Shown here: positions 17 to 35,124 of the stretch, in pieces | How positions within the stretch are numbered: position 1 is the stretch's first letter | How the letters are laid out: each line of letters begins with the position of its first letter | DNA from: Balanoglossus misakiensis | Taxonomy: Eukaryota; Animalia; Hemichordata | DNA length: 64,000 nt | Direction: 5' to 3' | NCBI GenBank assembly: GCA_040954595.2 | Contig: CM082582.2 | Coordinates: forward strand, 4,696,303 to 4,760,302 | Position numbers and translations under genes: made by a program | The notes under the pieces: model-generated | The model's input: only the letters and a program-made list of their open reading frames with translations | Databases searched by the model: none | Told to the model about the DNA's origin: nothing

Positions 17-1318
17 ATGGACGGTAGGGCGGACGGCAAAGCGTTGAATCATGAGGAACTGGAAATGACTAACCAGTTTACAAGTAAGCAAGATGCAGAT
101 CACGATACGCATGACACCCGAAAGGAAGGCGAAACACGACTGATACACATGTTAGGACAAAATAATGAAAAGGCCACTGTCCATGAGAGGACAGACTCGC
201 CACGCACTCCTGCACCTAACACTGAAAATTCGCTGGCTAAGGAGTTGGCGTTAGTCAGCAAATTGGCACAGAATCTTCCCAAAGAGGACGCTGTACAGTT
301 GATGGAACTGTTTGAGAATCGGGACGAGAAAATAAATTCCATGGACAATATGGCGTTGACCATGTCGTTACAAGTTCAGAAAATCTTGCAACTAGTCAGT
401 AACATAATGGACGAACAAAACACACCGGAATCCAGGAAACGCAGGGATGATCTTATGGAACTCCGTCAAAAACTCACCAGAGAGCCCATGGATCAAGGTC
501 ATATAAACGCCTCATTTTCGAAACTTGGTGAATCATACCAAGACATATCGAAGGAAGCAAACAAGGTTCCCAGAGCATCTATGGACGAGGCAGTCAGTAA
601 TAAACTGATCGACTACTATAAACGTGTTACTAACGTGCTCAAGAAGCAATCAAACCCGGATACAATAAGTGAATCCAATATGTCCTCTTTGAGTAAAGAT
701 CAACAGGAACGCATGGCTAGAATTAAACAACATATGTCAGAAAGCCCAGACATATACCAATACATACAGTCACTAGAGGCGGCAGTGGATAGTAGTCTAC
801 TCCAAGGTATACGTGAAAAATCCCCGCGACCACACGGTAGTCTGTCGCGTCATGCTGCGCAACAAAATGCTACCTATAGAGACCGCGACGATGGGTATTC
901 GCCACATTATCACACGCAAAAAATCACGGGACCTAGTCAGGAGCCCTACCAACGGCGTCAACCAACGCATGAGTGTATGTGTGAGGATTGTCAGCCCATA
1001 CGTCACACCAAATCTCCCCACCTGCAGAACCGACGCCAAGGATCTCCGCAAGACCCCATAAAGACCCATCAATCTAAGCACAATTCTGAAGCTATGCAAC
1101 AGCGCAAAGATGCGACCCAGTGTGATCGACAGCAAGACTGTACTGCAAAATCGTGTCGCCAACCGGACTCCGAGGATAAAATCGACGCCAGTTTCAGTGG
1201 TCATTCGGAGCACCAACAGACATTCTGGAAATTGAGGAAGCCAATAGTATACGATAATGATTTTCCGGAAGGATTTTGTGACGACGGACCACCAATAGTC
1301 AAGAGAATCAAACATTAG
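17..1318 (+). CDS. Hypothetical viral protein, coiled-coil plus disordered tail (possibly the scaffold part of a protease-scaffold precursor); may be 5'-truncated
   Basis: 433-aa ORF whose frame is open back to the window start; sits directly upstream of the triplex-like and MCP-like genes; function is inference only. Confidence 0.6.
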   Translation: MDGRADGKALNHEELEMTNQFTSKQDADHDTHDTRKEGETRLIHMLGQNNEKATVHERTDSPRTPAPNTENSLAKELALVSKLAQNLPKEDAVQLMELFENRDEKINSMDNMALTMSLQVQKILQLVSNIMDEQNTPESRKRRDDLMELRQKLTREPMDQGHINASFSKLGESYQDISKEANKVPRASMDEAVSNKLIDYYKRVTNVLKKQSNPDTISESNMSSLSKDQQERMARIKQHMSESPDIYQYIQSLEAAVDSSLLQGIREKSPRPHGSLSRHAAQQNATYRDRDDGYSPHYHTQKITGPSQEPYQRRQPTHECMCEDCQPIRHTKSPHLQNRRQGSPQDPIKTHQSKHNSEAMQQRKDATQCDRQQDCTAKSCRQPDSEDKIDASFSGHSEHQQTFWKLRKPIVYDNDFPEGFCDDGPPIVKRIKH

Positions 1319-1352: not shown

Positions 1353-2273
1353 ATGTCCATCAGAAACGCGCAAGTAAAAGCCCCTCCAGTTGAAGGCCCA
1401 GTGATTGCGCTTGAAGTAGACCGCACGTTCGTTTCACAAAACTTGGACGGTGCGAAGTTATCGGTCACTCAGGATGTGCTCTACCCGAGAGACGACAAGG
1501 TCACAATTGTACCGGGACAGGTACTGTTGGGACACAGGGATTTTGCTTCTAGAAAGTGGGGAGTTGTTCCTTCACCAGCTGGGCTCATGGCAAAGTCATT
1601 TGATATACATACTGGAGATATCGAAAAAAGCAGGCAGATGTGGGAGTTAGACCCACAGGCGTATAAGGTACTGGGTATAGCTTCGACCGAATCCACCGAT
1701 TGGGAAAAGGGTCAGCTAATGTCGATTGTGTCAAAGTCACCCAGTACGGGTTTTTTAAACACAGGAGGCAATTGGATAAGAGACGGACAACTTGTCTGTG
1801 TGCGTCTCCCAACCCACGAAGAAGCCAATCAACACTTGCATCGGTATGGTTCGATCAAATTTGCCACCTATCCCCGCGACGATAACGACGTTCATTCAAA
1901 TATATACGAGTTTATGGACTATCTAAGAATGGAAAAGGATATTGCTGTAGCAACAGGTCACCACAACAAAAGAGAATCGCTGAAAGCGCTCACCGAGATA
2001 CTATCGCGTTCTGGGGAATTCATTTCGAGTCATATAGTGCCAGAGCCAAGATCCCGAGCACAATTCGACAACTGGAAGCGTACGGGATATATTTTCAACA
2101 CTCCATTAACCCTATTCACTGATGAAGCGCACAGGATATCTTTGCAACATTTTCTCAACAATGTGGTCAAACTTGCCAACACAATTAGATCAAAGAACGA
2201 CCTGATAATCTTAGGACTCGCCAGGCAAGATATACACCCTTACGAATACGGGAGCATAGAACTCTACGTTTAA
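1353..2273 (+). CDS. Putative capsid triplex protein
   Basis: 306 aa, next to the MCP; C-terminus IILGLARQDIHPYEYGSIELYV resembles the terminal beta-strand pattern I recall for mirusvirus triplexes; AATAAA at 2353-2358. Confidence 0.55.
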   Translation: MSIRNAQVKAPPVEGPVIALEVDRTFVSQNLDGAKLSVTQDVLYPRDDKVTIVPGQVLLGHRDFASRKWGVVPSPAGLMAKSFDIHTGDIEKSRQMWELDPQAYKVLGIASTESTDWEKGQLMSIVSKSPSTGFLNTGGNWIRDGQLVCVRLPTHEEANQHLHRYGSIKFATYPRDDNDVHSNIYEFMDYLRMEKDIAVATGHHNKRESLKALTEILSRSGEFISSHIVPEPRSRAQFDNWKRTGYIFNTPLTLFTDEAHRISLQHFLNNVVKLANTIRSKNDLIILGLARQDIHPYEYGSIELYV

Positions 2274-6744: not shown

Positions 6745-6746
6745 AA

Positions 6747-6764
6747 TGGTGACCCCGACGTGAT
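6747..6764 (+). other. tRNA-Trp primer-binding site (18 nt)
   Basis: TGGTGACCCCGACGTGAT is the reverse complement of the 3' 18 nt of mature eukaryotic tRNA-Trp including CCA; it follows ...TTCACA plus AA. Confidence 0.85.
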
Positions 6765-7559: not shown

Positions 7560-8045
7560 TTATGAATACGATTTCAGTTCGGCAAAAACTTCTGAAAAAT
7601 ACGTACTCTCCTTGTTTATCCGTAACATGTTGGCACTACAGTCATTTATAATTTTCAGGCTTCTGTCCCCGAATCTGTCTCTGTCGTCTTCAACTAGGAA
7701 CGGTTTTAGCGGATAACTGATCTCGTTGCCCACGTAACTATAGGATAAGTACAGACATGTGAGCACGACGGCTTGTAGCTCAGACTCGGAGGTGATTTTG
7801 TCGTCGACCAAGTCCCGACATAACATGTACACGAAGACAAGGTTTGCCGGGGTGATGAAGGCAATGTCCTGCCACCCTTGCAAGAGCAGGGACCTGTCCA
7901 CTGATCGCAGCCACATTATGGCATCGTTGCCTTCGAAGTCCCGCAAGCAGGAGCATCGCCGACTGAGGAAATTTCCCAGACACTTCAGCAGTTCTCCGGT
8001 GGACGCTTGGATGGTTTTCTTGGTGTTCGGCGTTTTCACCGCCAT
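7560..8045 (-). CDS. CDK5R1: CDK5 activator p35 family protein, activation domain only (p25-like)
   Basis: [43 protein letters not shown] and [21 protein letters not shown] match p35/p39; in-frame TAA three codons upstream of the ATG. Confidence 0.93.
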
Positions 8046-8084
8046 GGTGTATTATTTGCTGACCCTATATTGGCAAGCTTCACA
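8043..8084 (+). repeat. 42-bp direct repeat, copy 2; supplies the leader and ATG of the p25-like ORF
   Basis: Minus strand reads tgtgaagcttgccaatatagggtcagcaaataatacaccATG. Confidence 0.95.
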
Positions 8085-8464
8085 CGATGAACAATTTATT
8101 TTTCTTCCTGGCCTAATTGTCTCTGTACTGTCCGTGTTGCCAGCCAATCCACTCATTTATTCCGCTGCTTTGATATAATTACATGCCTATGCAAATAGGG
8201 AAAGATATACAAATCTACATGCCTTTTTTTTATACACCACATAATACGTAAGTGCATGTATTCCAACTGTAATACATTGGATAGACCGTGTGCGTGCGTG
8301 TCACTATCCTGCGTGTAAAATTGGCGAGTATAATTTTTAGAGACAACTCGGCTTTTGTGGCTCATAATTCTAATTATATCAAAGTACAACGCCAACAGTC
8401 CTATACATCTGGCGTTGACATAACCTATTAGCGTGTGCAGAGAACAGTATTGTTTAGTTGAACC

Positions 8465-9435: not shown

Positions 9436-10014
9436 ATGACAGAACAAACGTCAATGTCGTCTCAATTAGACCCCGAAATGTGTATTTGTCGCATATGCCA
9501 AGAAGGTGAATCGTGTGCTGAAGGCGGCATGCTCTTGATTGCACCTTGTTTATGCAAAGGTAGTCTGAAGTTTGTCCACCGTAGGTGCATCCAAACCTGG
9601 ATAAGAAGCGCTCGTATCAACCGATGTGAAATTTGTAATGCACGCTTCAAAATCATGGTTGAGACTAGACCAATATCAGAATGGACATTGCCGAAGATGA
9701 CCAGAACGATATGGATAAATATTGCACTTGTGTTGTCGTGTACTGTGTGTATATTAGGCATATCATTACACATGCACCTTTTGGTGGAATCCCTATTTCT
9801 AAAGATGGATGCACTGAATACATTTTTCGTGGTGGCTTGCGTGTTGCTGGCACTTATGGCGCTGACTGCATTTGTCCTCCTAGAGACTTTTAGGTGCGTG
9901 GACGTGTATGTGTGGTTAAGAGAGAACAACAGAGAGATAGGTGTTAAGGACTATTGCCCATCTTCTCAACAAATACATGGTGGTGATGAAGACATACGCA
10001 CGAATACGGTGTAG
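9436..10014 (+). CDS. MARCH-type (RING-CH/RINGv) membrane E3 ubiquitin ligase
   Basis: CRIC...LIAPCLCKGSLKFVHRRCIQTWI...CEIC C4HC3 motif followed by two hydrophobic helices. Confidence 0.9.
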   Translation: MTEQTSMSSQLDPEMCICRICQEGESCAEGGMLLIAPCLCKGSLKFVHRRCIQTWIRSARINRCEICNARFKIMVETRPISEWTLPKMTRTIWINIALVLSCTVCILGISLHMHLLVESLFLKMDALNTFFVVACVLLALMALTAFVLLETFRCVDVYVWLRENNREIGVKDYCPSSQQIHGGDEDIRTNTV

Positions 10015-10244: not shown

Positions 10245-11513
10245 ATGTCCGAACTTATCGACGTGGTTTATGGAGTTGACGGGAAAAACATCGGAGAGGT
10301 ATTCCACATTCCGTACTTCTGGTTACCCAAGTTTATACCGGCATGGGATCGTTTGCTAGAACGAACAGGAGGTGGTCAAGAGGATGGCGATCGCCGGCGC
10401 CTCATTCTGAGATACCCCTTTCCAGACAAGGTGACGTCGAAAGATGTGGATGAAATTGTCAAGTTTGTCAGCGATTGTGTACATAACTATTCAACATTTT
10501 GTCGACCATCCGATGTTCCTTGGTCGAGGTTGACAGCTGTGCTCAGGCTGGTGGACCATTACAAGGTCACTCCATACCTCGACGCTTTGGTATCTTTTAT
10601 ACATAAAACCTCCATGAATGCGTACACATCCCAAACCACCCTACACATGTTAGAAGCCTATCATGACCTTGTGCATGACTTGACGGAAGATGTACTACCT
10701 GCAGCAATCGTCAGAGTGGAGATCGCCACTCAATGCGTGTTAAATGCCAATTCGTGGAATTACATTTGTTCATGTCAAAAATGTCCCGAACACCCGCGAC
10801 GCGACGAAGTCGCTTTGTTATTTTGTGGACACGAGAAACAGATTCACGCCTACTGGGAAAAGATGATGTCGTGCACTCTGACAAAGAATCTACGAAAGAG
10901 TAAATGGACCCTTGCCACTTTCGCGTGTATGGTCTCTGATGGTTGCCATGGAATAGCTACGCAATTACCGCAAAGTCCATCTTATTCTACTAATTTTCGT
11001 CTGCTCTTGCATTTGTGGTTGGCGAAAGGAGGTGAAGATGTACTTGCTGAACACGTTGCCCTTCTATCGTGCCTGTGTAGACAGGATGATCTTATGAGGC
11101 GTGCAGTCATTTTACAGGGCATGTTCAAGTACTCCGGAATGACCCAGATTGCCATCAGAGATTCTCTGAAACCTATAACATCACGGAGACGTACCATACA
11201 ACAGGTATGGGCGAGCGCCGCCGATGAAACATGCTATAATTGTTTGAATACACCGCAAGCGTCAAAATGGATTCATTGGAAAACATTTCCACGCGTGGCG
11301 TGTGATGTATGCGCAGAAGAGATGTGCCGGAAATGTTACGGTACGTGCGCATTGTGTGAACGAACTTTGTGTTTCGGATGCGCTACGTTTCTTACCAATG
11401 ATAGAAGAATTGAATGGCTGATGACTAATGTGAGTAGGCGAGCAATACACGGTCATGGAGTATGTGTAGATTGTAGAGGCTTTCCGGGGAAGTTGGTACC
11501 CAACAAAAACTAA
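10245..11513 (+). CDS. BTB-like N-terminus plus Cys-rich C-terminus protein, paralogue A
   Basis: Likely ATG 10245 in the 448-aa ORF; VLRLVDHYKVTPYL resembles the BTB C-terminal helix; many CxxC pairs; same layout as 25192-26541. Confidence 0.6.
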   Translation: MSELIDVVYGVDGKNIGEVFHIPYFWLPKFIPAWDRLLERTGGGQEDGDRRRLILRYPFPDKVTSKDVDEIVKFVSDCVHNYSTFCRPSDVPWSRLTAVLRLVDHYKVTPYLDALVSFIHKTSMNAYTSQTTLHMLEAYHDLVHDLTEDVLPAAIVRVEIATQCVLNANSWNYICSCQKCPEHPRRDEVALLFCGHEKQIHAYWEKMMSCTLTKNLRKSKWTLATFACMVSDGCHGIATQLPQSPSYSTNFRLLLHLWLAKGGEDVLAEHVALLSCLCRQDDLMRRAVILQGMFKYSGMTQIAIRDSLKPITSRRRTIQQVWASAADETCYNCLNTPQASKWIHWKTFPRVACDVCAEEMCRKCYGTCALCERTLCFGCATFLTNDRRIEWLMTNVSRRAIHGHGVCVDCRGFPGKLVPNKN

Positions 11514-11881
11514 CAAGACTGTCAGGAATTGTACATGGCACGCAGTAAATGAAATATTCGCGATAGAAAGAACAATAGCAATAAGAAGAAGAATTACAAC
11601 AAAGTGTCGTGTCCCTAAAATAACGGAACTGTTCAACATTGATGAAGATATGAGGTCGTTACCGCAACTTAAAGATGGCAGAACTATAACAATTGCCATA
11701 ATAGTTCTTTTTTTTTATTTCTTGGGTGTGTCATAACATAGGTTCTACAAAATATACGGACTCTCCTTTCAATACATGCATCGTCCAATCAGGTAAATAA
11801 ACAAACAACCCATAAATGTATGGATGTCTGCGATACTGTGTACATAATTTAACATAAATAAATAAATACATATCCGTATAA

Positions 11882-14800
11882 ATGCCCACTTGTCTGTGTC
11901 CATCTTCGTATTTATATTGCAATTTTATCACGGGTCAGAGCCTTATAACGTTAAACCTGGTCATGAATGTAGGAAGGCGGCGTGTTTACCTGTTAAAACT
12001 AGAAGTCAAAGGGAGAGGAGTCAACGCATCCGACCTCTGTACCATCTTCGGCAAACTTCCCAATGGGCGTAGTATCGCGTTGGACATACTCGACCCAGTA
12101 TATAGGATTTATTTGAATCCCATCAACGAGGTTAGGGACGAGGAAGAAGTGTGCGCCCTCATTCATCAGTATACCAGCACGTTTTCCAATAACTTCAGCG
12201 TTGGTAAAACGTCAAAGGTAATCGGCAATGGTTACGCGGGGGATTCTCGACTGCCATTTTGGTACGTCGAGTCGTCGGAAAATGCGGTTGTTAAACAGGT
12301 GCAAAAAAATCTACCACGCTCCATTTTCAATTTTTTTATGGACGGCTGTGGAAAGGCCTATTTGGACGTAGCGGCCAATATGAACATCGGGGGTGTTGGT
12401 TGGCACTGGATTAAGTCGTCAAGATACGTAACGGGATGCAAATGCCATTCGTGGTATGGCAAAGAACATGATCATGCCACTGTGAGTGATACCCACTCCA
12501 TTGAGCCCCAACGAGAAGGCGAAAGTAGTCCACCACCACCCATTAACATTCTTCAACTGAAAGTTCATTGCTATCCAGACGGTGTAATCGCATTTATTAC
12601 CTGTTCGTTGTTACGATGGGCAAAAGATTTGACTTGTCTGTTTAATAATACATTCCGTAATTGTACCGTTGTGAAGTTTAGAACCACGATGTATGGTGGT
12701 GATATCTCAAATGTAGTAAATTGCAGGGATGAAGGTAATGTGTTACGCGCATTCACCAAAATCATCACTACCTGTGACTATGACTTTTTATGTGGATATT
12801 TTTTGGAAAAGGAACAGTTAAGAGTGTTAAAGGAGAGAAGTTGTCTTCACGGGCTCAACTTGATAAACCCTTTATTAATCAGGGATATTCGCCACACGCC
12901 TTTCATCAACAGGTGGGATAATGACCCACGCGGTATTGGCTTGATCGACATATGTACTGACAAACACGCGGATGGTCCGGACGCCTACAAATACATCAAA
13001 GACACTGTATTTAACAAAGGCTTCCTGAACACATACTTATCAACTTGCGAAGCGGCTACTATATTCTGTAGCCGACTAACTCACAAGAAGTCAAATGTAG
13101 ATATTATACAGGTACCATACATGGATTTTTTTGAGTCAGCTATGACTCGTAAGGCTAAACAACTTGGGTACGTCTTTGCATGCAGGGAAATCGGAGGAAG
13201 CAATGCGACGACGAGTCATTCTGAATATGAGATTGAAGCAGATCGAGGTCAAGGTTGTCAAGGCGGTTTGTTTCTCACGCCGGTTCAAGGGTTACACGTG
13301 GGCAATGCAGAATTGAGAGATTTTAAAAGCATGTACGGTTCCATAATAGTTGCATTTAACATCGACATCACCACTAGTTTGCAAGAATCACGCGCGGGTT
13401 TATTAAATGATGTAATTGAGATACCAGGTGGCTACAACTTTGTTAGCCCAAATGTTCGGCAGGGGTTACTACCGTCTATAGTTTCAAATCTTGTCGCGCA
13501 ACGGGAACACTTCCAGAAAATTGCCCAGAGCAACAACGAAAACGGGAGTTGGTACGAAATGCAACAAATGGCACGGAAACAATTGATTGTGGGAGCTTAC
13601 GGAGTCAATTTACGTCAGAGTATATTCACAAGCCCGTGTGTGGCTAAGGCCATTACATCCACTGGTAGATTCCTCTTTGAACGGATGAGAGTAACAGCCG
13701 CGTCATTCACCCACCCACATTTATTGACGACACCCAGTGTCCTATTTGGAAATGCAGATTCTCTGATGACCAGTTTCCTGCCAGCACGTGAATTGTCTAA
13801 CGTCGAATGGACCGAAGTTTTCATGGATATTGGACAGTGTTTCCACGACGACATTCGTAAAGTAGTTCAAACCATGGGCGCGAATATAGATGCGCGTTTA
13901 TTGCGGTTTGAGTCGAAAGGGCATGCAAAAATAGTAATGTGTACGAGTCGCAAACAACAGTATGTGATGTGCATTAGGTCAACTTCCAAAAAAGGATGTT
14001 GTTTAGTTGTCAAAGGGTTTGTATCGAACTCTACAAACTGCCATCCCTTGGTGAGAAACGTGGAAAGATGTATGCTGTCGCTCCTGTTTGAAGGTCATGT
14101 ATTGCTTAGGTCTGTAGAATCTGGGCAACTGTCAACACTTCACCCAAGTGAATTGTCCACACGCTCGCAACTGATATATGAAGCGTACGTAGCATCATCT
14201 GGGGTGTGGGTGAAGGTTGGAGATGCTATAAACCAAGATACTGGTGTTAAGAACTCCTTTCGTTTGCGAGATAATTTAGGCAGAGAATTGTGCGAACGCC
14301 TTTTTGACGAGGACGGCATTCCGATACTCACCACTGACAGACTCAGAGAAATAAGGTCTGAAGTGGAGACGGTTGTGTTGTACACGTTAAACAGAGTCAT
14401 AATGTTGCAAGAAGACACGCACCTGTTGATAAAACATTTGCCACCGAATGCTAACCCTGGTGCAAGGTCGACGTTGGAAAAACAATACATGCAATTTCAC
14501 GGGAGATTGCCTTGTGATATATTATATGTGAATACCAAAGAAGATGGACCAATGCACCCTCTTTTGGCTGTCTTCCAACAGAAAACACTAGAGACAGATG
14601 ACACAATTGCATCGATAAAAAAGACCTTTATTGAGGGGGGTGACGAAGGTGGTCCGTATTCCATTATGAATGTTATGAGGCCCAACGTCAAGACATTACA
14701 CGGAGTATTGTGCATGGAAACAGAATCAACTGTGCAAAATCAGTTAAGAGTACAAAGACAGTTTCGGAAACGATTCGATTCTGTCCTCGCTATGTCCTCT

Positions 14801-15166
14801 AAGAAAGTCGAACACCCCGTGTGCAATAATGAAGAGGAATATGTGATGACAAAATTGTTGAATTTTACCAACTGTCCAGATTGTAAAGTTATCACTGTAG
14901 ATCGAGCTAATCGCGACTACAACTACACCGACATGTTCGGAACTGATGCGATAATCCGGAAGCATAATTTGGTTTTATTCAATGTATGCAAACAAAGTTC
15001 GCGTGTGTATTTCATATCCAATTGTAAGGATGTCCAGTGTGTAGGCGTATACAAATTTGCCACCTTGGTGAATCAATTGAAAATACTAACTGCACTTAAA
15101 AACAAGGAAGCAATGGTAAACAAAGTGTCAACTGTTTTGACTGAACGTCTCACGAAATCACAATGA
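11882..15166 (+). CDS. polB: Family B DNA polymerase, delta-like, with divergent catalytic and exonuclease motifs (alternative ATG 11963)
   Basis: Motif A RDFKSMYGSIIVAFNIDITT, motif B QMARKQLIVGAYG, motif C LFGNADSLM, VKGF, C-terminal Cys cluster CPDC...CKDVQC; AATAAA 15258-15263. Confidence 0.88.
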   Translation: MPTCLCPSSYLYCNFITGQSLITLNLVMNVGRRRVYLLKLEVKGRGVNASDLCTIFGKLPNGRSIALDILDPVYRIYLNPINEVRDEEEVCALIHQYTSTFSNNFSVGKTSKVIGNGYAGDSRLPFWYVESSENAVVKQVQKNLPRSIFNFFMDGCGKAYLDVAANMNIGGVGWHWIKSSRYVTGCKCHSWYGKEHDHATVSDTHSIEPQREGESSPPPPINILQLKVHCYPDGVIAFITCSLLRWAKDLTCLFNNTFRNCTVVKFRTTMYGGDISNVVNCRDEGNVLRAFTKIITTCDYDFLCGYFLEKEQLRVLKERSCLHGLNLINPLLIRDIRHTPFINRWDNDPRGIGLIDICTDKHADGPDAYKYIKDTVFNKGFLNTYLSTCEAATIFCSRLTHKKSNVDIIQVPYMDFFESAMTRKAKQLGYVFACREIGGSNATTSHSEYEIEADRGQGCQGGLFLTPVQGLHVGNAELRDFKSMYGSIIVAFNIDITTSLQESRAGLLNDVIEIPGGYNFVSPNVRQGLLPSIVSNLVAQREHFQKIAQSNNENGSWYEMQQMARKQLIVGAYGVNLRQSIFTSPCVAKAITSTGRFLFERMRVTAASFTHPHLLTTPSVLFGNADSLMTSFLPARELSNVEWTEVFMDIGQCFHDDIRKVVQTMGANIDARLLRFESKGHAKIVMCTSRKQQYVMCIRSTSKKGCCLVVKGFVSNSTNCHPLVRNVERCMLSLLFEGHVLLRSVESGQLSTLHPSELSTRSQLIYEAYVASSGVWVKVGDAINQDTGVKNSFRLRDNLGRELCERLFDEDGIPILTTDRLREIRSEVETVVLYTLNRVIMLQEDTHLLIKHLPPNANPGARSTLEKQYMQFHGRLPCDILYVNTKEDGPMHPLLAVFQQKTLETDDTIASIKKTFIEGGDEGGPYSIMNVMRPNVKTLHGVLCMETESTVQNQLRVQRQFRKRFDSVLAMSSKKVEHPVCNNEEEYVMTKLLNFTNCPDCKVITVDRANRDYNYTDMFGTDAIIRKHNLVLFNVCKQSSRVYFISNCKDVQCVGVYKFATLVNQLKILTALKNKEAMVNKVSTVLTERLTKSQ

Positions 15167-15673
15167 GTGTCATACAATGGATGAGAAGGGTCGTGATAAT
15201 ACTACTAATAATAATATATATATGCAGTCGCTTTAATTGGTATGTTGGTTTTCGTATAATAAAGTGTATTGCAAATAGAACAGTCCAGAATAGTCTTCTG
15301 CGAGTGTAAATTAGCATACACATAATACCATATTAGCTGTCTAATGGCGTGGTTTCATTGTCAGAACAAAGAATATACAATAAACAATATATCCCTAGAA
15401 ACATCGTATTTTTAACTCGCATTTAATATCAAGTAACATTTTCAACAGATAATGTGTACATTGTGTTGTGTATTTCAAATGTTTTGTTTTATTTCGGGAG
15501 GTGTCGATGTTTAGAGTGTTCCTACAGAGAAACACTTGCATATAAAAATAGAGACTCAATATACTACATACAAAACACCACAGCCTATTTGTTATCCTAT
15601 ATCGTCTTCTTCGGTTGACTTTTGACGTAGACAAATCTGCGATATGTTTTTTTTTCCATACTCGCCCCTCTTA

Positions 15674-18600
15674 TCACTTGACTGTTATCTGGTTTAGATT
15701 TTGGTCAAAGTTGTGACTCAACATAGATTTGACATATGGAACGAGAGTGGTCAAATTTCTTTTGCTTTTGGTGACAACGATGTACTTAGCACTCCCTTTA
15801 GTGAAGTCTATCAGATGCTCATTCGTTGACACAAAACAGAGCGGGATCATTGCATCGTGCCGGTCTACAAATTTTACATTTCGAGTTTTACCCAGTAAAA
15901 GTATCAATCTGAACATAGTGGGTGTGGATGTGTTAGGGTCATGCGGAATCACAACTGGATAAAACGTTGCGACTTTAGTAGTCGCATGCCCCCTACACAT
16001 TGCAGCCACTCGACTGAATTTGTTTAGTTCGCTGTCTCGGTGTCCGTTGTCATCGCGGTAGCACATAAACTGCCTCGCCTCTTCTAACATGACCGAGAAT
16101 GATGGTTGTGGGTCGAAAAAGTCTGTCATGATGTTCTTGAATAAACTGTCTGTGTAAGAAGGGAGTCGTCTGTAAGCGGACGACACAAACGAGACGAAAG
16201 GACGTCCGTTTATCGCTAAGTCTACATAGTTATCCCTACATGGCGCGTCGATCGTAACCCCGTTGCTGCGTAGCCGATGCGCTTCTTTCAATGCGTCCCT
16301 TTGTGTCTGTAAATACCGCACTATATCCTGGCTCTCCCTTAACTGGCGAGATAAATCGCGCACTGTAGCCTCGTGTTTATCGCAGCCGTCATGCGCCTTC
16401 TTTAGTCTGTCAATTTCAGCAGCTCTCTCGGCAGACAACTGTCGAATCGCTTTATTTTCCTTTCTCAGTGAGTTTACCAATGATTCCAAATCATGTTCGG
16501 ATGAAACTTCCAAACATACTGTCTGCTCTATATTGGAGGTTTGGGATCCGGAAGGATCAATCCTACTCGCTTGACTGTCAATCGCACGAACACCCAGTAT
16601 TCCTTTGGCATTTTCTAGTTCTCGTAGGCTTTTGTCACGGGTTTCAATAATCTTTTGTTGTTCTCTGATCTCGTTTTCAAAATGTCTCCTTAATTCGGCG
16701 ATCTGAGATGTATGACTTTTTTCCATCACTTTAACTTTATTTTCTAGTAGCCGTTTATCGCTTGCAATTTCCTGCATGCGCCTGTCCCGTGCGATATAAT
16801 ATTCCGGGGACCCTGCCTGAGATTGACTATCCGACAAGTCACTATCTTGACCCTGCCCAATCCGGCTTTCGTCTCTAAAGGCCCGTGTATTTAAACTGTC
16901 CCTTTGTTCAGCTTGGATAAAGGAAGTTTCCAGCGAGTGTAATTTCGTTCGAAATTCACTATTTTCATCATTCAGGTCATTCGCCTTTCGTTTCCAGTCA
17001 TTAAGATCGCCGATCGCATCGTCTAGCCTTAACTGAATTTCATTTAATTTTTGTTCAAATTCCCTTTGCTGCATAATTTTGTCTTCATTATTTCGTGCGA
17101 CTAGTTCGACTTGCTCAAGCAGCTTGTTGCGCAAGGCTTCGTTCTCCGATACGAGGCCAGCGTTCTCTTTTTGTTGTAACTCGTTTGACTTGACCGTGGA
17201 TGTTATTTCAGTATTCTTGTCGCCAAGTTCTCGAGATATTTGTATATTTTCCTGACGGAGATTACGAAATCGACTATTTGTATCATCAAACTGACGTCTT
17301 AGTGACTCCAAGTCCATACGGAGCTGTCGATTGTTTGTCTCCGTCTGTCGATGTTGTTTGCTAAGTGCGTCTACATGTTCGTTTGCTACCACGACTTTGT
17401 CTTCCAGTTGGTCACGATCACGCTGGTACATATCACGCTCGATTCGCAGTTGGGCTATCTGTTTGTACGTGATGTCTGCTGTACTCTCCGCCTTCGCTTT
17501 CATATCCTGATTGTCTGACTTCAAGGTCTCAATTTCCTCCCTCAAATCGTCAACTTCTGCATTTGCTTCATCTAGTTGTTGTTTTAAGGCATTTCTGGTG
17601 TCCACAGACTGCCGAACTTTCATTTCTAAAGTATCAATCTCTCTCCTGGTTTTGGACTCTTTCTCTTTAAACTCTCTCAAACTTTTGTTGTCACTTAATG
17701 ATTGTGAATTCAGTTCCTGTAACTTCTCTCGCTGTCGTTGATTATTCTGTTCTGATACGGCCTTTTCGTGAACGAATCGCTCAATTTTCTTGTTCAAGTA
17801 GTCGTTTTCTTCTCGTATTGCGTTTTCCTGTTCGGTTCTTTTTGAGATTTCAGCGCGCATTTGATTATACTCCATTACCTTTTCATGTAGCTCAGCCTTT
17901 AAACGCTTTGCTTCACCCATGTAACGATTAGTCTCTCCATCAATCGACCCTGACTGTTTCCCTCTACCATTCGATTGCAGTTGTTCATTCTCGACCGATA
18001 GCTGGTAAATTTTCGCCTGAGCGTTTTTGTTACTGACAAAGACCTCTGTCCGTAATTTACTACAGTCGATATTCAACCGGGTAACCTGGGCTTGTAACTT
18101 CTCTTCCGCTTCTTTTTGTTTGGAATTTGTTTCATTAGCATGTTGTAGACTGAGGCGAACATCCTCTAACTCGGTCTCAAATTTACGAATGTCTGACTGT
18201 CGTTCTTCTAATAAATTTTCTCTGATTTCCAATTTATGCTCTAAAGAGTCAACGACCGATCGCGTGTCCGTTAACTCCGTTTGTAACCTCTCATTGTCTT
18301 GTTTGAGGTTGGAACGTGTAGTATCATGTTGGACCTTTTGCGCATTAAGATCCCCTTGTAATTGGTTCTTTTCAGAGACCAATGCGGACAACTTAGTTTC
18401 TAGGCGCCTAATTTGGTGATTCAATTGTTCATTTGCGGCTTGTTCCTTGTGTAGAAGCTCCTTGGTAAATGCATTCTCACTAGACACACGCTTTACGTGT
18501 TGAGAAGTGTCTGTGAGATCACTGTCGATGGTATTCATTTTGGACGTGGCCGTCGCAAGTTGATCCTTCAGCGCATCAATCTCCTTCAACGCATCTGAAA

Positions 18601-21600
18601 GTTTCTGTTGGGTCTCCTCATGTTTATCGTGTCTTGTTGACAGACTGGTGTTTTGCTCAGAAACAAGTCGTTCAAATTCTCTTGTCCGTTCCAACAGTTG
18701 TCCGTTGGTCTCAATCAATTTCCTTCTGTCTTCATTCAGATCCACGATATCGCGCTCGAGGTTTCGAATCAAATTAAAACTTTCATCATTGGAGCGTTCT
18801 ATATCATCTTGCAATTTCTGTTTTATCGCCTCAATGTTGTCTAATGACTTTCTCATACTTTCAAGCTCGCGCTGTTTCGCTCTGTTTTCTTCTTGAGTAC
18901 GTACAATGCGTTTGGTCAACTCGCCATTTTCGTTTTCTGCAATTTCTAATTTTTGTTTGGCCATTTCCATAGCATATAGTGACTGTTTAATAGAGTCAAG
19001 CTCGCGCTGTTTCGCTCTGTTTTCTTCTTGGGTACTTACATTGCGTTTGGTCAACTCGCCATTTTCGTTTTCCGCAATTTCTAATTTTTGTTTGGCAATT
19101 TCCATAGCATATAGTGACTGTTTCATAGAGTCAACTTCTCGCTGTTTCGCCTCAACTAACGAATTTTGTTCTGTTTGTATACGTTCGATGTCCCGACTCA
19201 ACGTGTCTTTTTCGTTCTCTACAACCACCAGTTCCCTTTTTGCCGCCTCTACAGTTTCTAGTGACTGTTTCGCACTTTCGACCGCTCGCTGTTTCGCCAA
19301 AACTAAAGTTTTGTTTTCTGCTTGGATACGTCCAATCTCTTCCACCAATTTGGCTGCCTCATTCTCTGCACATACTAATTTCCCTTTCATATCCTGCATG
19401 TTACGCTTATCCGCTGTGATTAGTGCCTCGTTGTCCGCTTTAAGATGCTCAATGTCATTTTCTAAATTTTCTATACGCGCCAACAATGATTTTATTTTTT
19501 GTTTGGCGTCAGTTTGACTCGTTTGTTCAGTTTGACCGTCGTTGACCCCCTCCGATACACGAAGAGTTCTGCAATTTTCTTCAGATAGTTCCCCATTTAC
19601 AGAAAGCCTACTGCCACTCTCTCGAGGTCGCGGCAATCTTATTGGTTCATAATAATCAGTAAGAGATTTCAAGTCATCCTCCAGTGTATCAGTTTCAGTA
19701 CCGGATACAAGGGGTATGTCAAATATAGGATCCTCACCAACACTGGCGTTGCTGTTCGACGTATAGTGTATCAGTGACGGGGACATTGTTTGTGGTTTTG
19801 GAGTATGTAAGGTGTCGGGTGTATCGAATGGAATCTCAACAAGCGAAGGCCGGGACTGTTTAGGCGACGCATGTCTTGGAGGATGTAAGGTGTCGGGTGT
19901 ATCGACTGGAATCTCAACAAGCGAAGGCCGGGACTGTTTAGGCGACGCATGTCTTGGAGGATGTAAGGTGTCGGGTGTATCGACTGGCCTCTGAACAAGC
20001 GAAGACCGGGACTGTTTAGGCGACGAGTACAAGTCGTCGAGGCCACTCGACGTATCTTGAGGACAGACTGTCTGTAACAGTGAAGTAATGGTATCATCGA
20101 AAGGCGCGGTAGTTGAGGGCGCCGTTCGTGGTTTAGGGACAGGTAATGCCACCAGCGAGTCTGATGCAGGAGACGAAGTAGGCAACGATGATAGGTCTCT
20201 ATGCTTAGTAACCTTCGAATCTTCTCGCGAGTCCAATGGAAGAGTGGTGCGTGTTTCTTCGGGGATGGTAATCTGCAAGGGTGTGGACGCTGATACCGGT
20301 GGGAATACGACGCCGTCAGTTGTGGAGGTGTCGACAAGAGAGGAAAACTGCTCCCAATTGTCAATTTTCTCAAGGGGATGGTCGCCAGGGGTTTGCGCAT
20401 TAGACGAAGATGTCGATTTGCGTGAGAGTGCGTCAGAACCATTTCCGTCCACTCGTGTTGGAACATTTTGTACTAATTCACTAACGTCTTCGCTGTGGAT
20501 CAATTCCTGTAAACCGGAATATCCGCCACTGTCTGCTTGATTTACATCTGATATAGCGGACGCCGTGTCTGAAGTATGTGTCATTTGTTCATCAGTGTCA
20601 ACTACACGTATCGGGTCACTTGACTGGTCGTCGTATTGTTCTGTCAGTTCTGATAGGGATGCCTGGCAAATTTCCCCGGCTGGTTCAACATTTACAATGT
20701 TTTCAGGATGATACTCATATTCGTCTCTGTATCTGTCCAAAGTATTGTCAGTCACTCTGTCGTCGAACCCTCGAGGTGAAGGGTCCGTTTCAAGCACATT
20801 CTCGTATTGACTATTTGAAAAGTCAACGTATCTTTGGTCATTGTCTGACAGAATGCCCGCATTGGCGCGTCCTGTCTTATATCTTCTATCCTCCGTAAAC
20901 CTCGTGTCGCACAAAGCACCATATACAATGGCGACAAGATTACCCTCAGTGTGTCCACATTTTAGAGTCCCCTGTATATTATTACCAAAGAGTGTTGGTA
21001 AGTCATCTGTAGCATTATCTGCCAATAATTCTCTTAGGGCAGTTTGTTCTAAAGTACCACTTAAGACGTTATGTACATCTTTTTCGATTCGTATGAAACG
21101 TGCAAGACTCCTAAATAATTGATTAAAATTTATGTCCATGGACGTTTCTTTGTACTGAGCAAAAGTTGAATTAAGTGCCCGTGCAGCAGAATGCATGGCT
21201 ACTCTCAATTGTTCAAACAATGGAATATTTATTGAGTCTGGTGTACCGAAACACTCTGGAAAGGTCGATAGGAAGTGCGGCTTTGTCTGGTGATCGTCGA
21301 ATAAACCATTTATCAGGTCGAGCAGCTCGTTTCTATTCGTATGACTGTCGCTGGCAAGGTCCAAGATCGTTTCACAATTGGCGCACAAGTGACTCCACAG
21401 ATATGGATATAAAGACAACACGCCCCAGACATTTGGAATTTCAGATAAGATTAATTGGAGTGTATGTTTTGACAGAATTATGTAAAACGTTGGCATTTGA
21501 CTTTTGACATCCTGTTCGATATATTTAAAAAAATGATACATCGTACCCCTCTCATATTTCAAAAGCACACTGCACACATTCTCCAACCTATCCAAATCAA

Positions 21601-22414
21601 CCTTTTCTATGCCTTCCACTACAAAGCTGTCCTCATTTTTAGCTAAATACCGATGTGCACCATAAGCGGTGTACGTGAAATTTTCGGATTTTACTCTGTG
21701 TGTGTGTTTGCTGGGGTTAGCGTCTGTTGATTTGGAATGGTAAGATGTGGTTCCTGGAAAACTCCGCATACAAGAGAAACATACGGCCTTGCGCGTCAAC
21801 ACGCGACATATGGCATTTTTTTTTAAGTCGTACGCCACATACAAATTTTTTGTAGAGTCTTTTTGCAACAAGAAGCCACCTCCTAGGACCAACATGTAGA
21901 CGAGCCTATTGAACGTGGATGGTGGCAGGCTGCACGTCGACTTTGACCTGACATCTTTGTATATTGTTAACAGACTTTTGTACAATCTAAGCAGTTCGAC
22001 GCAACATGGCGTGTCGCCTATTTTACTCTCACGAACGGAGCACAATGTCTCGACGAATGCGTCGGTAAATCCACGTGCTAGAAATCTATTTTGGTCCGCA
22101 GCATGGACTATGAAACCATCGTCAAACCCCGTTGAGATTATTCTATTTAACCTACACACGGGATTGGTGCTTGAAACCAGTTCGTCTTCTATCCTGTTAG
22201 TGGGTGTACACACCCTCTTGCCTATCTGGAGGTGACTTTGCCCATCTTCATCGTCTGAATGTGAACATTCACTCTCATTGGGCCGTTTTCGAGAAATCTC
22301 ATCTGGACATTCCATTAAAGGTTCAAATGTTATTGCCCAAATACAAAACATAATTGCCCAAATACAAAACATTAGTATTAAGGTTTTATTATTATCAAAT
22401 CTAGGTGACCACAT
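15674..22414 (-). CDS. Giant coiled-coil viral protein (likely ATG at 22315), tegument/structural-like
   Basis: 2246-aa uninterrupted ORF: globular N-terminus, S/T/P-rich linker, roughly 1100-aa heptad region, globular C-terminus. Confidence 0.8.
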   Translation of the reverse strand: MWSPRFDNNKTLILMFCIWAIMFCIWAITFEPLMECPDEISRKRPNESECSHSDDEDGQSHLQIGKRVCTPTNRIEDELVSSTNPVCRLNRIISTGFDDGFIVHAADQNRFLARGFTDAFVETLCSVRESKIGDTPCCVELLRLYKSLLTIYKDVRSKSTCSLPPSTFNRLVYMLVLGGGFLLQKDSTKNLYVAYDLKKNAICRVLTRKAVCFSCMRSFPGTTSYHSKSTDANPSKHTHRVKSENFTYTAYGAHRYLAKNEDSFVVEGIEKVDLDRLENVCSVLLKYERGTMYHFFKYIEQDVKSQMPTFYIILSKHTLQLILSEIPNVWGVLSLYPYLWSHLCANCETILDLASDSHTNRNELLDLINGLFDDHQTKPHFLSTFPECFGTPDSINIPLFEQLRVAMHSAARALNSTFAQYKETSMDINFNQLFRSLARFIRIEKDVHNVLSGTLEQTALRELLADNATDDLPTLFGNNIQGTLKCGHTEGNLVAIVYGALCDTRFTEDRRYKTGRANAGILSDNDQRYVDFSNSQYENVLETDPSPRGFDDRVTDNTLDRYRDEYEYHPENIVNVEPAGEICQASLSELTEQYDDQSSDPIRVVDTDEQMTHTSDTASAISDVNQADSGGYSGLQELIHSEDVSELVQNVPTRVDGNGSDALSRKSTSSSNAQTPGDHPLEKIDNWEQFSSLVDTSTTDGVVFPPVSASTPLQITIPEETRTTLPLDSREDSKVTKHRDLSSLPTSSPASDSLVALPVPKPRTAPSTTAPFDDTITSLLQTVCPQDTSSGLDDLYSSPKQSRSSLVQRPVDTPDTLHPPRHASPKQSRPSLVEIPVDTPDTLHPPRHASPKQSRPSLVEIPFDTPDTLHTPKPQTMSPSLIHYTSNSNASVGEDPIFDIPLVSGTETDTLEDDLKSLTDYYEPIRLPRPRESGSRLSVNGELSEENCRTLRVSEGVNDGQTEQTSQTDAKQKIKSLLARIENLENDIEHLKADNEALITADKRNMQDMKGKLVCAENEAAKLVEEIGRIQAENKTLVLAKQRAVESAKQSLETVEAAKRELVVVENEKDTLSRDIERIQTEQNSLVEAKQREVDSMKQSLYAMEIAKQKLEIAENENGELTKRNVSTQEENRAKQRELDSIKQSLYAMEMAKQKLEIAENENGELTKRIVRTQEENRAKQRELESMRKSLDNIEAIKQKLQDDIERSNDESFNLIRNLERDIVDLNEDRRKLIETNGQLLERTREFERLVSEQNTSLSTRHDKHEETQQKLSDALKEIDALKDQLATATSKMNTIDSDLTDTSQHVKRVSSENAFTKELLHKEQAANEQLNHQIRRLETKLSALVSEKNQLQGDLNAQKVQHDTTRSNLKQDNERLQTELTDTRSVVDSLEHKLEIRENLLEERQSDIRKFETELEDVRLSLQHANETNSKQKEAEEKLQAQVTRLNIDCSKLRTEVFVSNKNAQAKIYQLSVENEQLQSNGRGKQSGSIDGETNRYMGEAKRLKAELHEKVMEYNQMRAEISKRTEQENAIREENDYLNKKIERFVHEKAVSEQNNQRQREKLQELNSQSLSDNKSLREFKEKESKTRREIDTLEMKVRQSVDTRNALKQQLDEANAEVDDLREEIETLKSDNQDMKAKAESTADITYKQIAQLRIERDMYQRDRDQLEDKVVVANEHVDALSKQHRQTETNNRQLRMDLESLRRQFDDTNSRFRNLRQENIQISRELGDKNTEITSTVKSNELQQKENAGLVSENEALRNKLLEQVELVARNNEDKIMQQREFEQKLNEIQLRLDDAIGDLNDWKRKANDLNDENSEFRTKLHSLETSFIQAEQRDSLNTRAFRDESRIGQGQDSDLSDSQSQAGSPEYYIARDRRMQEIASDKRLLENKVKVMEKSHTSQIAELRRHFENEIREQQKIIETRDKSLRELENAKGILGVRAIDSQASRIDPSGSQTSNIEQTVCLEVSSEHDLESLVNSLRKENKAIRQLSAERAAEIDRLKKAHDGCDKHEATVRDLSRQLRESQDIVRYLQTQRDALKEAHRLRSNGVTIDAPCRDNYVDLAINGRPFVSFVSSAYRRLPSYTDSLFKNIMTDFFDPQPSFSVMLEEARQFMCYRDDNGHRDSELNKFSRVAAMCRGHATTKVATFYPVVIPHDPNTSTPTMFRLILLLGKTRNVKFVDRHDAMIPLCFVSTNEHLIDFTKGSAKYIVVTKSKRNLTTLVPYVKSMLSHNFDQNLNQITVK
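18861..19160. repeat. 135-bp (45-aa) coding tandem repeat in the giant protein
   Basis: tcaa(g)ctcgcgctgtttcgc recurs at 18861, 18996 and 19131. Confidence 0.85.
19805..20025. repeat. 78-bp (26-aa) coding tandem repeat, about 3 copies
   Basis: atgtaaggtgtcgggtgtatcga at 19805, 19883, 19961; encodes SPKQSRPSLVEIPVDTPDTLHPPRHA. Confidence 0.9.
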
Positions 22415-26629: not shown

Positions 26630-27140
26630 AGACAGACAGTGTATATTTTGTACTTGACGTTTATTTATCACCTTTTGTTACATTAAAAAATAACATAATT
26701 GTATCGGCAGTATTAACGTCGTCTTGTTTTTTATTGTATGCGGGGGGGGGGGGGGGGTGGTACAACCAAACCACACAGTTTAAAATCCATATCAATTGTA
26801 AGACAACCAGTGTAAATTTTGTACGCTACATTCATTGATCAATATTTGTTGAACAACAAAAAATAACATAATTGTATTGTCTGTCTTATAGTCGCTTTGT
26901 TTTCTATTGTATGTGAAGGGGGGGGGGTACAACCAGACCACACAGTTTAAAATCCATATCAAGTGTAAGACAACCAGTGTAAATTTTGTACGCTACATTC
27001 ATTGATCAATATTTGTTGCATTAAAAAAAGATAACATAATTGTATTGGCTGTCTTAACGTCGTTTTTTTCTGTATTTTACGCGAAGGGGGGGGGGGGAGG
27101 CACAGCCAAACTCTATAGTTAAAACTCAATATCAGTAGTA
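26630..27140. repeat. About 170-bp tandem repeat (roughly 3 units) with poly-G tracts, overlapping the RNR2 3' end
   Basis: taacataattgta at 26691, 26864 and 27032, each followed by a G-run. Confidence 0.85.
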
Positions 27141-28138
27141 AACTTATGATCTTCTTTGTTTCCAGAGCCAAACTTTCGATATTCGCTGACTCTTCTTTCG
27201 AAAAAGTTTGTTTTTCCATCAAGAGCGATGTTTTCCATAAAGGGAAAGGGATTGTCTACTTTATACAGTTTATCCACGCCCAATTCTCCAAGTAATCTGT
27301 CCGCCACAAATTCCACGTATTGTTTCATTTTGTTGGCATTCATCCCGAGCAAGGGTTCTGGAAGGCTTTCGTCGACAAATACCTTCTCGATCTCAGTACC
27401 TTCTTTTACAATGTCAATAACTGTGTCCTCGGGGGGTTTGTCTCGAAGAGGTAATTTATGGTACATGAGACAAGCAAAATCGCAATGTAATCCCTCGTCA
27501 CGACTGATTAACTCATTAGAATGACACAGACCGGGTAGAAACCCCTTTTGCTTTAACCAAAATATACCGGCGAAAGCCGAAGAAAATAGAACCCCTTCGA
27601 CCACGGCAAACGCCACCAGTCTAGTAGCGAAAGTAGACGCCTCGTCTTCAATCCACTTTGAGATCCATTTTGCCTTTAGATTAATACTCGGTACGGTTAA
27701 TACAGCATTAAAGAGTCTTTGTTGCTCTTGGCTGTTCTCGGCGTAAGTCTCTATTAAGAGTTTGTACATCTCCGAATGAATGTTTTCCATTGCTGTTTGA
27801 AAGTCGTAGAAATATTGGGCTTCCAATATGGTCACTTCACGAGAGAATCTATTGACTAAATTCTCGGAGACTATCATATCGCTACTCGCAAAAAAGGCTA
27901 AGATCATTTTCACGTACATTTGCTGTGTCTCTGTCATGAGTTTCCACGTCATCAAATCTTTACTAGTATCTACTTCACCTGGGACCCAGTAGGAAGACTT
28001 AGCCTTCTCATACATGTCCCACAGGTCATGGTGTTCAATATCTCTGACACAAAACCGACGGAGGTCTATGGTTTTATTCGTTCCCTTAGATACAGCTATT
28101 TTTGACTGTACCTCACGGAGGATATTTGTCGCGTCCAT
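27119..28138 (-). CDS. RRM2: Ribonucleotide reductase small subunit (class Ia R2), intronless
   Basis: ILAFFASSD, ENIHSEMY, VEGVLFSSAF, SRDEGLH, KTNFFERRVSEY, C-terminus FTTDIEF. Confidence 0.97.
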   Translation of the reverse strand: MDATNILREVQSKIAVSKGTNKTIDLRRFCVRDIEHHDLWDMYEKAKSSYWVPGEVDTSKDLMTWKLMTETQQMYVKMILAFFASSDMIVSENLVNRFSREVTILEAQYFYDFQTAMENIHSEMYKLLIETYAENSQEQQRLFNAVLTVPSINLKAKWISKWIEDEASTFATRLVAFAVVEGVLFSSAFAGIFWLKQKGFLPGLCHSNELISRDEGLHCDFACLMYHKLPLRDKPPEDTVIDIVKEGTEIEKVFVDESLPEPLLGMNANKMKQYVEFVADRLLGELGVDKLYKVDNPFPFMENIALDGKTNFFERRVSEYRKFGSGNKEDHKFTTDIEF

Positions 28139-33923: not shown

Positions 33924-34508
33924 ATGGCCGAACTATTCAGTGTTTCAATAAGGAGGCCGGTCAGTATCATTTTGTAATACCTTTTCCGTATTTTTACATC
34001 TTCGGGTGGCATAACCCCCACCTTTTATTTCTTTACTTAGGTGAGTATGTGGCATTTGAGACACGTAAATAAGGACGCGAAATGTAAAGCTATGGGAATA
34101 GCCAAGAAATTAGAGACAGCGCCCACTAGCGGCCGAAAAACAATGTCGAAAGGTGAGTATCGCGCGTTCGTCAGATATGCGTTATATTTAATGGTTTTGC
34201 GTTTCTGTGCGGTCGTTGATGACCGAGCCAATGATCCGTGTAAAATCAGCACCCATACTTCGAGATATCGGTGGTTTCTTGAACCATTGTATTTTATTCC
34301 GGTTTCAGGCACGAACATCGTTCTACACAATTCAGTACAGTGTTCACAGCCCTTACCCGAAACCTCTCACGTATTGGACGCCTTGACTAGAGTACATTGT
34401 GTGATTGAAGGCTGTTACAACCCAAGTGCCAGAATAGTCAGCACCGATAATGTACACGGTCTAATGCACGCTGTGAAGTTTATCAAAGGTAATGTGAACT
34501 ACATGTAA
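33924..34508 (+). CDS. Spliced hypothetical viral gene, join(33924-33959, 34041-34508); last viral-type gene
   Basis: MAELFSVSIRRP|GTCAGT...tttctttacttAG|VSMWHL in frame (81-nt intron); TATA at about 33840; AATAAA 34529-34534. Confidence 0.65.
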
Positions 34509-34844
34509 TGGATTTCCTATATTACGGAAATAAAGTTGTGACGTCAAAATTTAATGGTTTGAATGTGAGTCAGTGAAGATTAACAGTCATGTGATAGAAT
34601 TTTTACTTTCGGTTCATTGTGTGTGACAAAATCTTAGGTATTTATACAAGACATGCGAATATTACTTGACAGAGTTGTGGGTGGGGGGGGCAATTTGATT
34701 TTCTTTGGTCAAAAATGTATCGTTCAATGCAGCGATGTATCATTAACATCACCAGCGCTCTTAAAATTTAGGTCGCACTCAGTATTACCACAGTATGTGC
34801 AGATATCACATTTACGCATGCGTCGTTGTTGCTATTGAAGGAAC

Positions 34845-34855
34845 GGGGAATCCCC
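34845..34855. promoter_or_regulatory. NF-kappaB-like site upstream of paralogue 1
   Basis: GGGGAATCCCC, conserved at 41801-41811 upstream of paralogue 2. Confidence 0.6.
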
Positions 34856-35107
34856 TCGCATATACAGTGTAATTACCAGGAAGTCGAGGCCTTCGGTGGA
34901 ATCGCGGTACCCAACCGTTTGTGGTGTATAGCGTTCGTGACATTCATAGTCGTGCTCTCTACAGCTTGCAGAGATCAGTCCAGAACCCGGACATTGCTCC
35001 AGGGCGAGAAATCTTGCAGTTCTACATGTACAAGCGTCTCGTCTGCATGGTGGAGACCCTGTAAGTTGTTGGGTCAAGTAAGGTCAGTTGCAGGCATACG
35101 TTTCCTT

Positions 35108-35124
35108 CTTTCGATTTCCCTTTC
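35108..35124 (-). promoter_or_regulatory. ISRE/IRF-like element upstream of paralogue 1
   Basis: Minus strand GAAAGGGAAATCGAAAG (GAAANNGAAA); the orthologous site at 42126-42138 reads GGGAAACCGAAAG. Confidence 0.5.

Follow-up and report, generated by a model that had tools for sequence, protein, structure and literature searches.

A family-B DNA polymerase with an altered active site and apparently dead proofreading in a probable herpes-like element of Balanoglossus misakiensis

A gene for a DNA polymerase of family B (PolB) with an unusual active site was identified in a 64,000-nucleotide stretch of the genome of the hemichordate Balanoglossus misakiensis (GenBank assembly GCA_040954595.2, contig CM082582.2, positions 4,696,303 to 4,760,302 of the forward strand). 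This whole stretch is referred to as the window, and positions are counted from its first letter. The gene lies within what is probably a young, multi-copy, herpes-like (HK97-type) element integrated in the animal genome. With rather better than even confidence, its product is predicted to be an active, non-proofreading viral polymerase with a rebuilt palm, likely copying the viral genome. Large DNA viruses are usually assumed to have replicative polymerases that proofread, and a non-proofreading one would be unusual for such a virus, if true.

A search of 1.84 billion cluster representatives recovered two full-length close relatives, P0002 (47% identity) and P0003 (33-37% depending on method), which form a subfamily of three with the present polymerase. 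Two fragments of a further subfamily member (P0005 and P0006) were also found, with motif C outside their span. Ten further matches are sister PolBs that keep the motif C sequence DTDS, have an altered motif B and lack the ExoI DxE; together with the subfamily they make up a family of 13. The features of the gene, all on the plus strand, are as follows.

11877..11882, plus strand: TATAAA box of putative function, ~85 nucleotides upstream of Met28 (sequence)
11882..15166, plus strand: family-B DNA polymerase open reading frame (ORF) (open reading frame, Pfam, structure model)
12548..12571, plus strand: ExoI position, ILQLKVHC, both carboxylates replaced (profile alignment)
12794..12817, plus strand: ExoII position, GYFLEKEQ, Asn and Asp replaced (profile alignment)
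13319..13342, plus strand: motif A, DFKSMYGS, the same throughout the subfamily of three; catalytic D480 and Y485 retained, Gly in place of Pro
13502..13504, plus strand: finger Arg541, kept (triphosphate-binding position, RB69 R482); the Lys four residues later is lost
13577..13603, plus strand: motif B, KQLIVGAYG; K566, Y573 and G574 kept, Asn replaced by Val
13745..13762, plus strand: motif C, FGNADS; Asn in place of the first Asp (both homologues have His), catalytic D626 retained
13910..13918, plus strand: E677-S-K679; Glu retained at the Pol delta E800 position, Lys at the E802 position throughout the subfamily of three
13952..13963, plus strand: KKRY motif, here KQQY; first Lys and Tyr kept, second Lys replaced by Gln in all three subfamily members
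14873..15040, plus strand: four-Cys site, CxxC ... Cx4C, likely one metal site (alignment)
15258..15263, plus strand: AATAAA, probable polyadenylation signal (sequence)

The strings given for motifs A, B and C, ExoI and ExoII in an initial annotation of this DNA, and its coordinates for motif C, were all correct, and alignment agrees with it that both principal catalytic Asp (D480 and D626) are retained. The three subfamily members share DFKSMYGS, KxLIVGA[YF]G and G[NH][AT]DS, with motif C reading FGNADS, FGHADS and CGHTDS, and P0002 and P0003 also lack the exonuclease carboxylates. Many conserved positions are altered together, namely the motif-A Pro, the finger Lys, the motif-B Asn, the motif-C Tyr, Asp and Thr, the E802 position and the KKRY Lys.

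An active-site table was made from a polymerase-domain alignment of 119 proteins, those of 152 that satisfied the length filters; 116 of these are outside the subfamily. The motif-A Asp and Tyr, the motif-B Lys and Gly, the KKRY Tyr and the KG Gly are invariant in all 119 and kept here, as is the second motif-C Asp (118/119). The first motif-C Asp is Asp in 116/116 proteins outside the subfamily and Asn or His in its three members, the second KKRY Lys is Lys in 115/116 and Gln in the three, and the E802 position is acidic in 114/116, never Lys, and Lys in the three. None of the 116 proteins outside the subfamily carries this three-way set of swaps. The motif-B Val is also found in six sister PolBs that retain DTDS. 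The motif-A Met was considered as a mutator sign and rejected; it is also present in 11 of 106 ordinary PolBs. Judged from the alignments, the co-changes look like a concerted charge swap, though not statistical covariation. In RB69 polymerase the first Asp of motif C and the second Lys of KKRY probably make a salt bridge at the primer end, a pair for which the literature searched gave no confirmation.

Identity to P0002 is 54-58% in the palm and fingers, 41% in the exonuclease region, 36% in the thumb insert and 40% in the tail, which suggests constraint centred on the polymerase core. The initial annotation had concluded from an ORF unbroken for more than 1000 codons that the gene is probably selected. 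The length is confirmed (1094 codons), and selection as against decay is supported by the same variants in homologues at 47% and 33-34% identity. The ORF length by itself says little, because the element is young.

The exonuclease region was compared in a profile alignment of the 13-member family with 24 Pol-delta-type proteins, which is collinear (probability 100%, E 6e-88). ILQLKVHC falls on ILSFDIEC and GYFLEKEQ on GYNIINFD, and there is a large deletion between ExoII and ExoIII. D374 survives as a possible ExoIII (YxxxD) Asp, in a region that is gappy and shortened in the alignment. The ExoI DxE is present in none of the 13 family members versus 89 of 108 other PolBs, and a Pfam exonuclease domain scores above the cut-off in none of the 13 versus 5/5 controls. 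P0003 has lost over half of the exonuclease domain (83/185 residues aligned) and retains the polymerase core. These comparisons support the view, already put forward in the initial annotation, that proofreading by this polymerase is apparently dead. Since the ten DTDS-keeping sisters also lack the ExoI DxE, the loss of proofreading appears to predate the active-site change, and it was probably lost early in the wider family. Because it is common to all 13 members, ten of which keep DTDS, the loss looks like a trait of the main polymerase of the family. It had been foreseen that related PolBs might share the variants and proofread normally; the variants are shared, but the relatives do not look like proofreading enzymes. 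The error-prone behaviour offered as an option in the initial annotation would not necessarily follow: an exonuclease-minus archaeal enzyme, Dpo2, is reported to have high fidelity on undamaged DNA (PMC8764526).

The ORF at 11882-15166 (plus strand) contains 1094 uninterrupted codons counted from the first ATG; the chance of such an open frame at the GC content of the DNA is ~4e-29. The true start is probably Met28 at 11963, because P0002, a homologue, starts at the equivalent residue and a TATAAA is present at 11877. By sequence and structure model the ORF is a whole-length family-B polymerase. Pfam PF00136 (DNA_pol_B) matches residues 450-747 (E 3.5e-20, 72.7 bits versus a cut-off of 23) and was the sole family in the Pfam scan of the ORF, with no exonuclease family. 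The structure model, made from a 17-row alignment, has a mean predicted local distance difference test score (pLDDT) of 74.5 and a predicted template modelling score (pTM) of 0.71. Residues 24-969 align with yeast Pol delta 3iay (Z 24.8, root-mean-square deviation 4.5, 759 residues aligned), and Pol delta, E. coli Pol II and the polymerase of HSV-1 (herpes simplex virus 1) are nearly tied in the structural list. Every named top match in a viral structure library is a DNA polymerase. The alignment and modelling against Pol delta and viral PolBs that had been suggested at the outset thus returned a PolB fold along the whole length. The layout comprises an N-terminal domain, an exonuclease-fold domain without catalytic carboxylates, the palm, fingers and thumb, a thumb insert of ~85 residues and a C-terminal four-Cys domain.

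Contigs from two short-read runs of the same sample as the assembly, which are not independent biology, cover the polymerase gene. Of the differences listed, only two fall within the ORF; both are synonymous and neither touches a motif. The unusual motifs are not an assembly error, because the contigs of both runs agree on them.

In the tail, C998, C1001, C1048 and C1053 are kept in 7 of the 13 family members. A global alignment sets the CxxC (998-1001) against the second Cys pair of Pol delta CysA and the Cx4C (1048-1053) against that of CysB, and whole-model structural alignments to 6p1h and 9ekb reach into this region. The zf-C4pol domain (PF14260) was matched in none of the 13 family members and in both Pol delta controls, and a tail-against-tail profile comparison with Pol delta was not significant (probability 0.3%, E 0.18). 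Thus, of the Pol-delta-like C-terminal Cys cluster described in the initial annotation, the four Cys are real and the likeness to Pol delta is not established. The tail is likely a single metal site of uncertain origin.

The 13-member family falls on one side of a branch with a FastTree support of 0.97 (68 rows). In a second tree (41 rows, every second non-family row left out) the Shimodaira-Hasegawa-like approximate likelihood ratio test (SH-aLRT) gave 92 for the family and 99 for the subfamily of three. The branches are long, and attraction between them may explain the 13-member grouping. Six of the sisters (P0007, P0009, P0014, P0022, P0027 and P0035) form a sister subfamily with the motif B KxxxVSxIGQ (no Asn, no Tyr) and intact DTDS. 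They have no ExoI DxE and no aligned C-terminal Cys pairs, and their longest contigs are 12-85 kb. No relative turned up in viral contigs scanned with P0001, with P0014 or with the subfamily, capsid and sister (A7) alignments. A scan with alignment A6 gave 19 loci at only 22-27% identity, which were dropped as ordinary distant PolBs. There was no match in the phage collection searched, and none of 1044 candidates was a short polymerase-domain fragment of this kind. No description of the family or its motif set was found in the literature searched; the proteins may be included in the supplementary herpes polymerase tree of 10.1101/2025.04.19.649669.

In the proposed mechanism, proofreading would have been lost early in the wider PolB family, after which concerted changes in one subfamily would have remodelled the side of the palm that binds the primer. 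Neutral polar residues would have replaced both the first Asp of motif C and the second Lys of KKRY, and the Lys at the E802 position could grip the phosphates of the deoxynucleoside triphosphates (dNTPs), replacing the lost finger Lys. Two-metal catalysis would rest on D480 and D626, and any correction of errors would depend on base selection or on host enzymes acting in trans. One metal and a partner subunit would likely be bound by the four-Cys tail. Activity with one motif-C Asp is plausible because of the precedents of archaeal PolB2 and the primer-independent PolBs. Sulfolobus Dpo2, which has neither the first Asp of motif C nor the exonuclease, is nevertheless reported to be as active as the replicase (PMC8764526), and the primer-independent PolBs, in which the same Asp is absent, are described as efficient enzymes (PMC7544198).

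A broader proposal, which we hold only tentatively and at less than even confidence, is that a herpes-like lineage integrating in animal genomes has long relied on a sole replicase without proofreading, one branch of which swapped conserved primer-gripping and metal-adjacent charges in concert. If true, large DNA genomes would be kept by base selection alone or by host proofreading in trans. The 13 natural PolBs without ExoI carboxylates, one branch of which also lacks the first motif-C Asp, offer a test of the extent to which the active site of family B tolerates rebuilding, and of whether large DNA genomes can persist without proofreading of their own.

Several points weigh against an active viral replicase. 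The three co-changes lie on one branch and are one event, not independent covariation, and the subfamily pattern comes from three distinct full-length members. RB69 E686A causes a severe loss (PMC3792054), a Pol delta E800/E802 double mutant has lower efficiency (PMC4142720), and roles have been described for N564 and K486 (PMC3564110); the E686, E802, N564 and K486 positions are all altered here, and activity could therefore be low. The element continues past the left edge of the window, where a second canonical PolB could lie. L001 and L002, two public loci with the same capsid gene order (see below), are without PolB, so that the tie of the homologous PolBs to the virus family is assumed. 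The structure model of the putative capsid protein is poor (pLDDT 29.5).

It is also conceivable, although we consider it unlikely, that the enzyme is an active, specialised second-line polymerase comparable to Pol zeta or archaeal PolB2, which extends mismatched or damaged primer ends in integration or recombination-dependent replication, bulk copying being left to a host polymerase or a second viral PolB. The altered residues sit where the primer end is checked (by the role of KKRY and the probable Asp-Lys pair), and the homologues carry His at the position of the first motif-C Asp. The combination of a missing exonuclease with a single motif-C Asp is the PolB2 pattern, and Dpo2 is characterized as an extender (PMC8764526). 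Some mirusvirus orders are reported to be without DNA polymerase and predicted to be host-dependent (PMC12768974). However, the exonuclease loss in all 13 family members, ten of them with DTDS, suggests a main-polymerase trait, and the element carries a ribonucleotide reductase (RNR) gene. The search for a second canonical PolB, recommended in the initial annotation, found none in the window, which holds ~34 kb of the element, nor in L001 or L002; the rest of the element is outside the window.

Less credible still is a catalytically dead protein, a scaffold or decoy comparable to the C-terminal half of Pol epsilon, its fold kept for binding DNA or host replisome subunits. The many conserved positions altered at once could be read in this way, as single changes at some of them are reported to cripple model enzymes, and the conserved Cys tail could mediate binding. 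Yet all residues invariant across the 119 PolBs are kept in the three members despite 33-47% identity, conservation is highest in the palm and fingers, and it would be unexpected to hold both metal-binding Asp over such a distance. The non-catalytic scaffold or decoy offered as an option in the initial annotation is therefore disfavoured. Post-integration decay of an ordinary proofreading viral PolB is very improbable. The gene does lie within an element that is joined to animal-like DNA and contains high-copy host repeats, but independent homologues have the same variants, there is no stop or frameshift, the window and the short-read contigs differ by ~0.08%, and both listed PolB differences are synonymous. 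An active, non-proofreading viral replicase is the preferred reading.

Several known polymerases share parts of this pattern. Like the present protein, archaeal PolB2 (Sulfolobus Dpo2) and bacterial G2 enzymes have a single Asp in motif C, the second, together with degenerate exonuclease motifs, and they were long thought inactive and then found to be active (PMC8764526, PMC7544198). PolB2 enzymes are short cellular accessory polymerases with the motif C HxxxD, whereas the ~1070-residue viral protein has G[NH][AT]DS, full N-terminal and exonuclease-fold domains and a Cys tail. The HxxxD of PolB2 and G2 is absent, as the His in the homologues stands two residues before the Asp, and the likeness is read as convergent. 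Pol delta (Pol3/POLD1) has collinear domains and Cys near its C-terminus, and 3iay is the best solved-structure sequence match (E 3.6e-14). In contrast to Pol delta, with ~17% structural identity, the present protein has no ExoI or ExoII carboxylates, no zf-C4pol and four conserved Cys instead of eight, and its family falls outside the Pol-delta-type rows in the trees (long branches, midpoint root). Pol zeta and Pol alpha are family-B enzymes with an inactivated exonuclease domain that are active (PMC7544198). They are cellular and have canonical DTDS and KKRY-type motifs, unlike here, and no REV3 or Pol alpha signature domains were found in the Pfam scan of the family.

Among viruses, members of the Herpesvirales (HSV-1 UL30, alloherpes, malacoherpes) combine a PolB with a protease-scaffold gene and a large capsid gene, as the present element probably does, and HSV-1 UL30 aligns to the polymerase model with a Z of ~23. 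Unlike the present protein, the orthoherpes polymerases are described as having ExoI-III (PMC3564110), and an alloherpes model as having a proofreading domain (PMC13030845). Starfish and ribbon worm genomes are reported to contain divergent, deep-branching insertions that are related to Herpesvirales and carry DNA polymerases (bioRxiv 10.1101/2025.04.19.649669). The available portions of that preprint mention no altered motifs, and this virus group may already have been glimpsed there. Mirusviricota combine an HK97-type capsid module, which is likely here too, with a PolB and RNR, and integrate in eukaryote genomes; the accounts available describe them mainly from unicellular hosts, unlike the animal-joined element here, and no RNA polymerase gene was seen in the window. 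The element appears to mark a herpes-like group in animal genomes that was previously undescribed.

Genes are densely packed in the left ~34 kb of the window, and the ORFs there are long and unbroken. The other features are as follows.

17..1318, plus strand: C-terminal part, likely the scaffold, of a gene for a capsid maturation protease-scaffold that runs off the window start (synteny)
1353..2273, plus strand: conserved gene of 306 amino acids (aa) between the protease-scaffold and capsid genes, 54% identical to L001 and 38% to L002
2946..6413, plus strand: likely major capsid protein of HK97 type, 1155 aa (phage capsid clusters as neighbours in the language-model atlas at 0.91, recognition low, a lead only)
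9436..10014, plus strand: RINGv (MARCH-type) protein with predicted membrane segments (Pfam)
15674..22414, minus strand: 2246-aa ORF with a long coiled coil and 135- and 78-bp repeats (sequence)
27119..28138, minus strand: RNR small subunit, dNTP supply (Pfam)
34460..35123, no strand: approximate right edge of the viral element (contig depth drop, gene content)

The order protease-scaffold gene, ~306-aa gene and capsid protein gene is also found in L001 (5821-11618) and L002 (7669-13255) at 36-54% identity, and these three genes appear to define the capsid module of the virus family. The counterparts of the protease-scaffold gene match Pfam Herpes_ORF28 below the curated cut-off (L001 E 0.015, L002 E 4.2e-6). 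The 306-aa gene, which we guess to be a triplex protein, gave no usable match in the language-model atlas and showed no similarity to the ORF at 31506-32567. The capsid protein had no PDB sequence match. No terminase, portal or helicase-primase was seen in the Pfam scan of the window, which covers part of the element. The N- and C-terminal parts of the 2246-aa ORF have homologues in L001 (32-33%), and it is therefore a conserved gene of the virus family; 5 of 10 tested differences to the contigs in this ORF are non-synonymous. The RNR small subunit is consistent with an element that makes its own DNA. RINGv-type ubiquitin ligases are often carried by large DNA viruses.

Two ORFs at 10245-11513 and 25192-26541 (plus strand) have a similar layout and Cys-rich C-termini without a clear Pfam family, and by eye are possibly paralogues. 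A 423-aa ORF at 22416-23687 (plus strand) has a C-terminal Cys...His arrangement and no Pfam match; its C-terminal part is reminiscent of an ovarian tumour (OTU)-type protease.

At ~34.5 kb contig depth falls from ~135 to ~27-54 (~5-fold) in run X1 and from ~330-550 to ~45-110 (~8-fold) in run X2; contig depth is not copy number, and the 5- to 8-fold excess over the flank is a hint only. Run X3 has no depth on the viral genes and is uninformative either way. No bridging contig at this junction was present among the matches listed. The element is young, because it differs from a 10,806-nt short-read contig at nine positions (~0.08%). To its right, at ~36500-61000, a macro/RING/Deltex-type gene that apparently has introns is repeated in tandem in about three copies of ~9 kb each, together with pieces resembling long interspersed elements (LINEs); this stretch is read as host DNA flanking the element.

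Two insertions were seen inside the viral element. An inverted-repeat-bounded insertion by the RNR gene (~28394-29155), with very high contig depth (>100,000 in one bin), is likely a host miniature transposon. The other, at 6483-8113, has terminal inverted repeats and TAA/TTA-type flanks and carries a CDK5-activator coding piece (7560-8045, Pfam E 3.4e-87). It looks like a host-gene-carrying transposon inside the virus, presumably Harbinger-like by its signature; its ends are high-copy in the sample, and a diverged copy is present in run X3.

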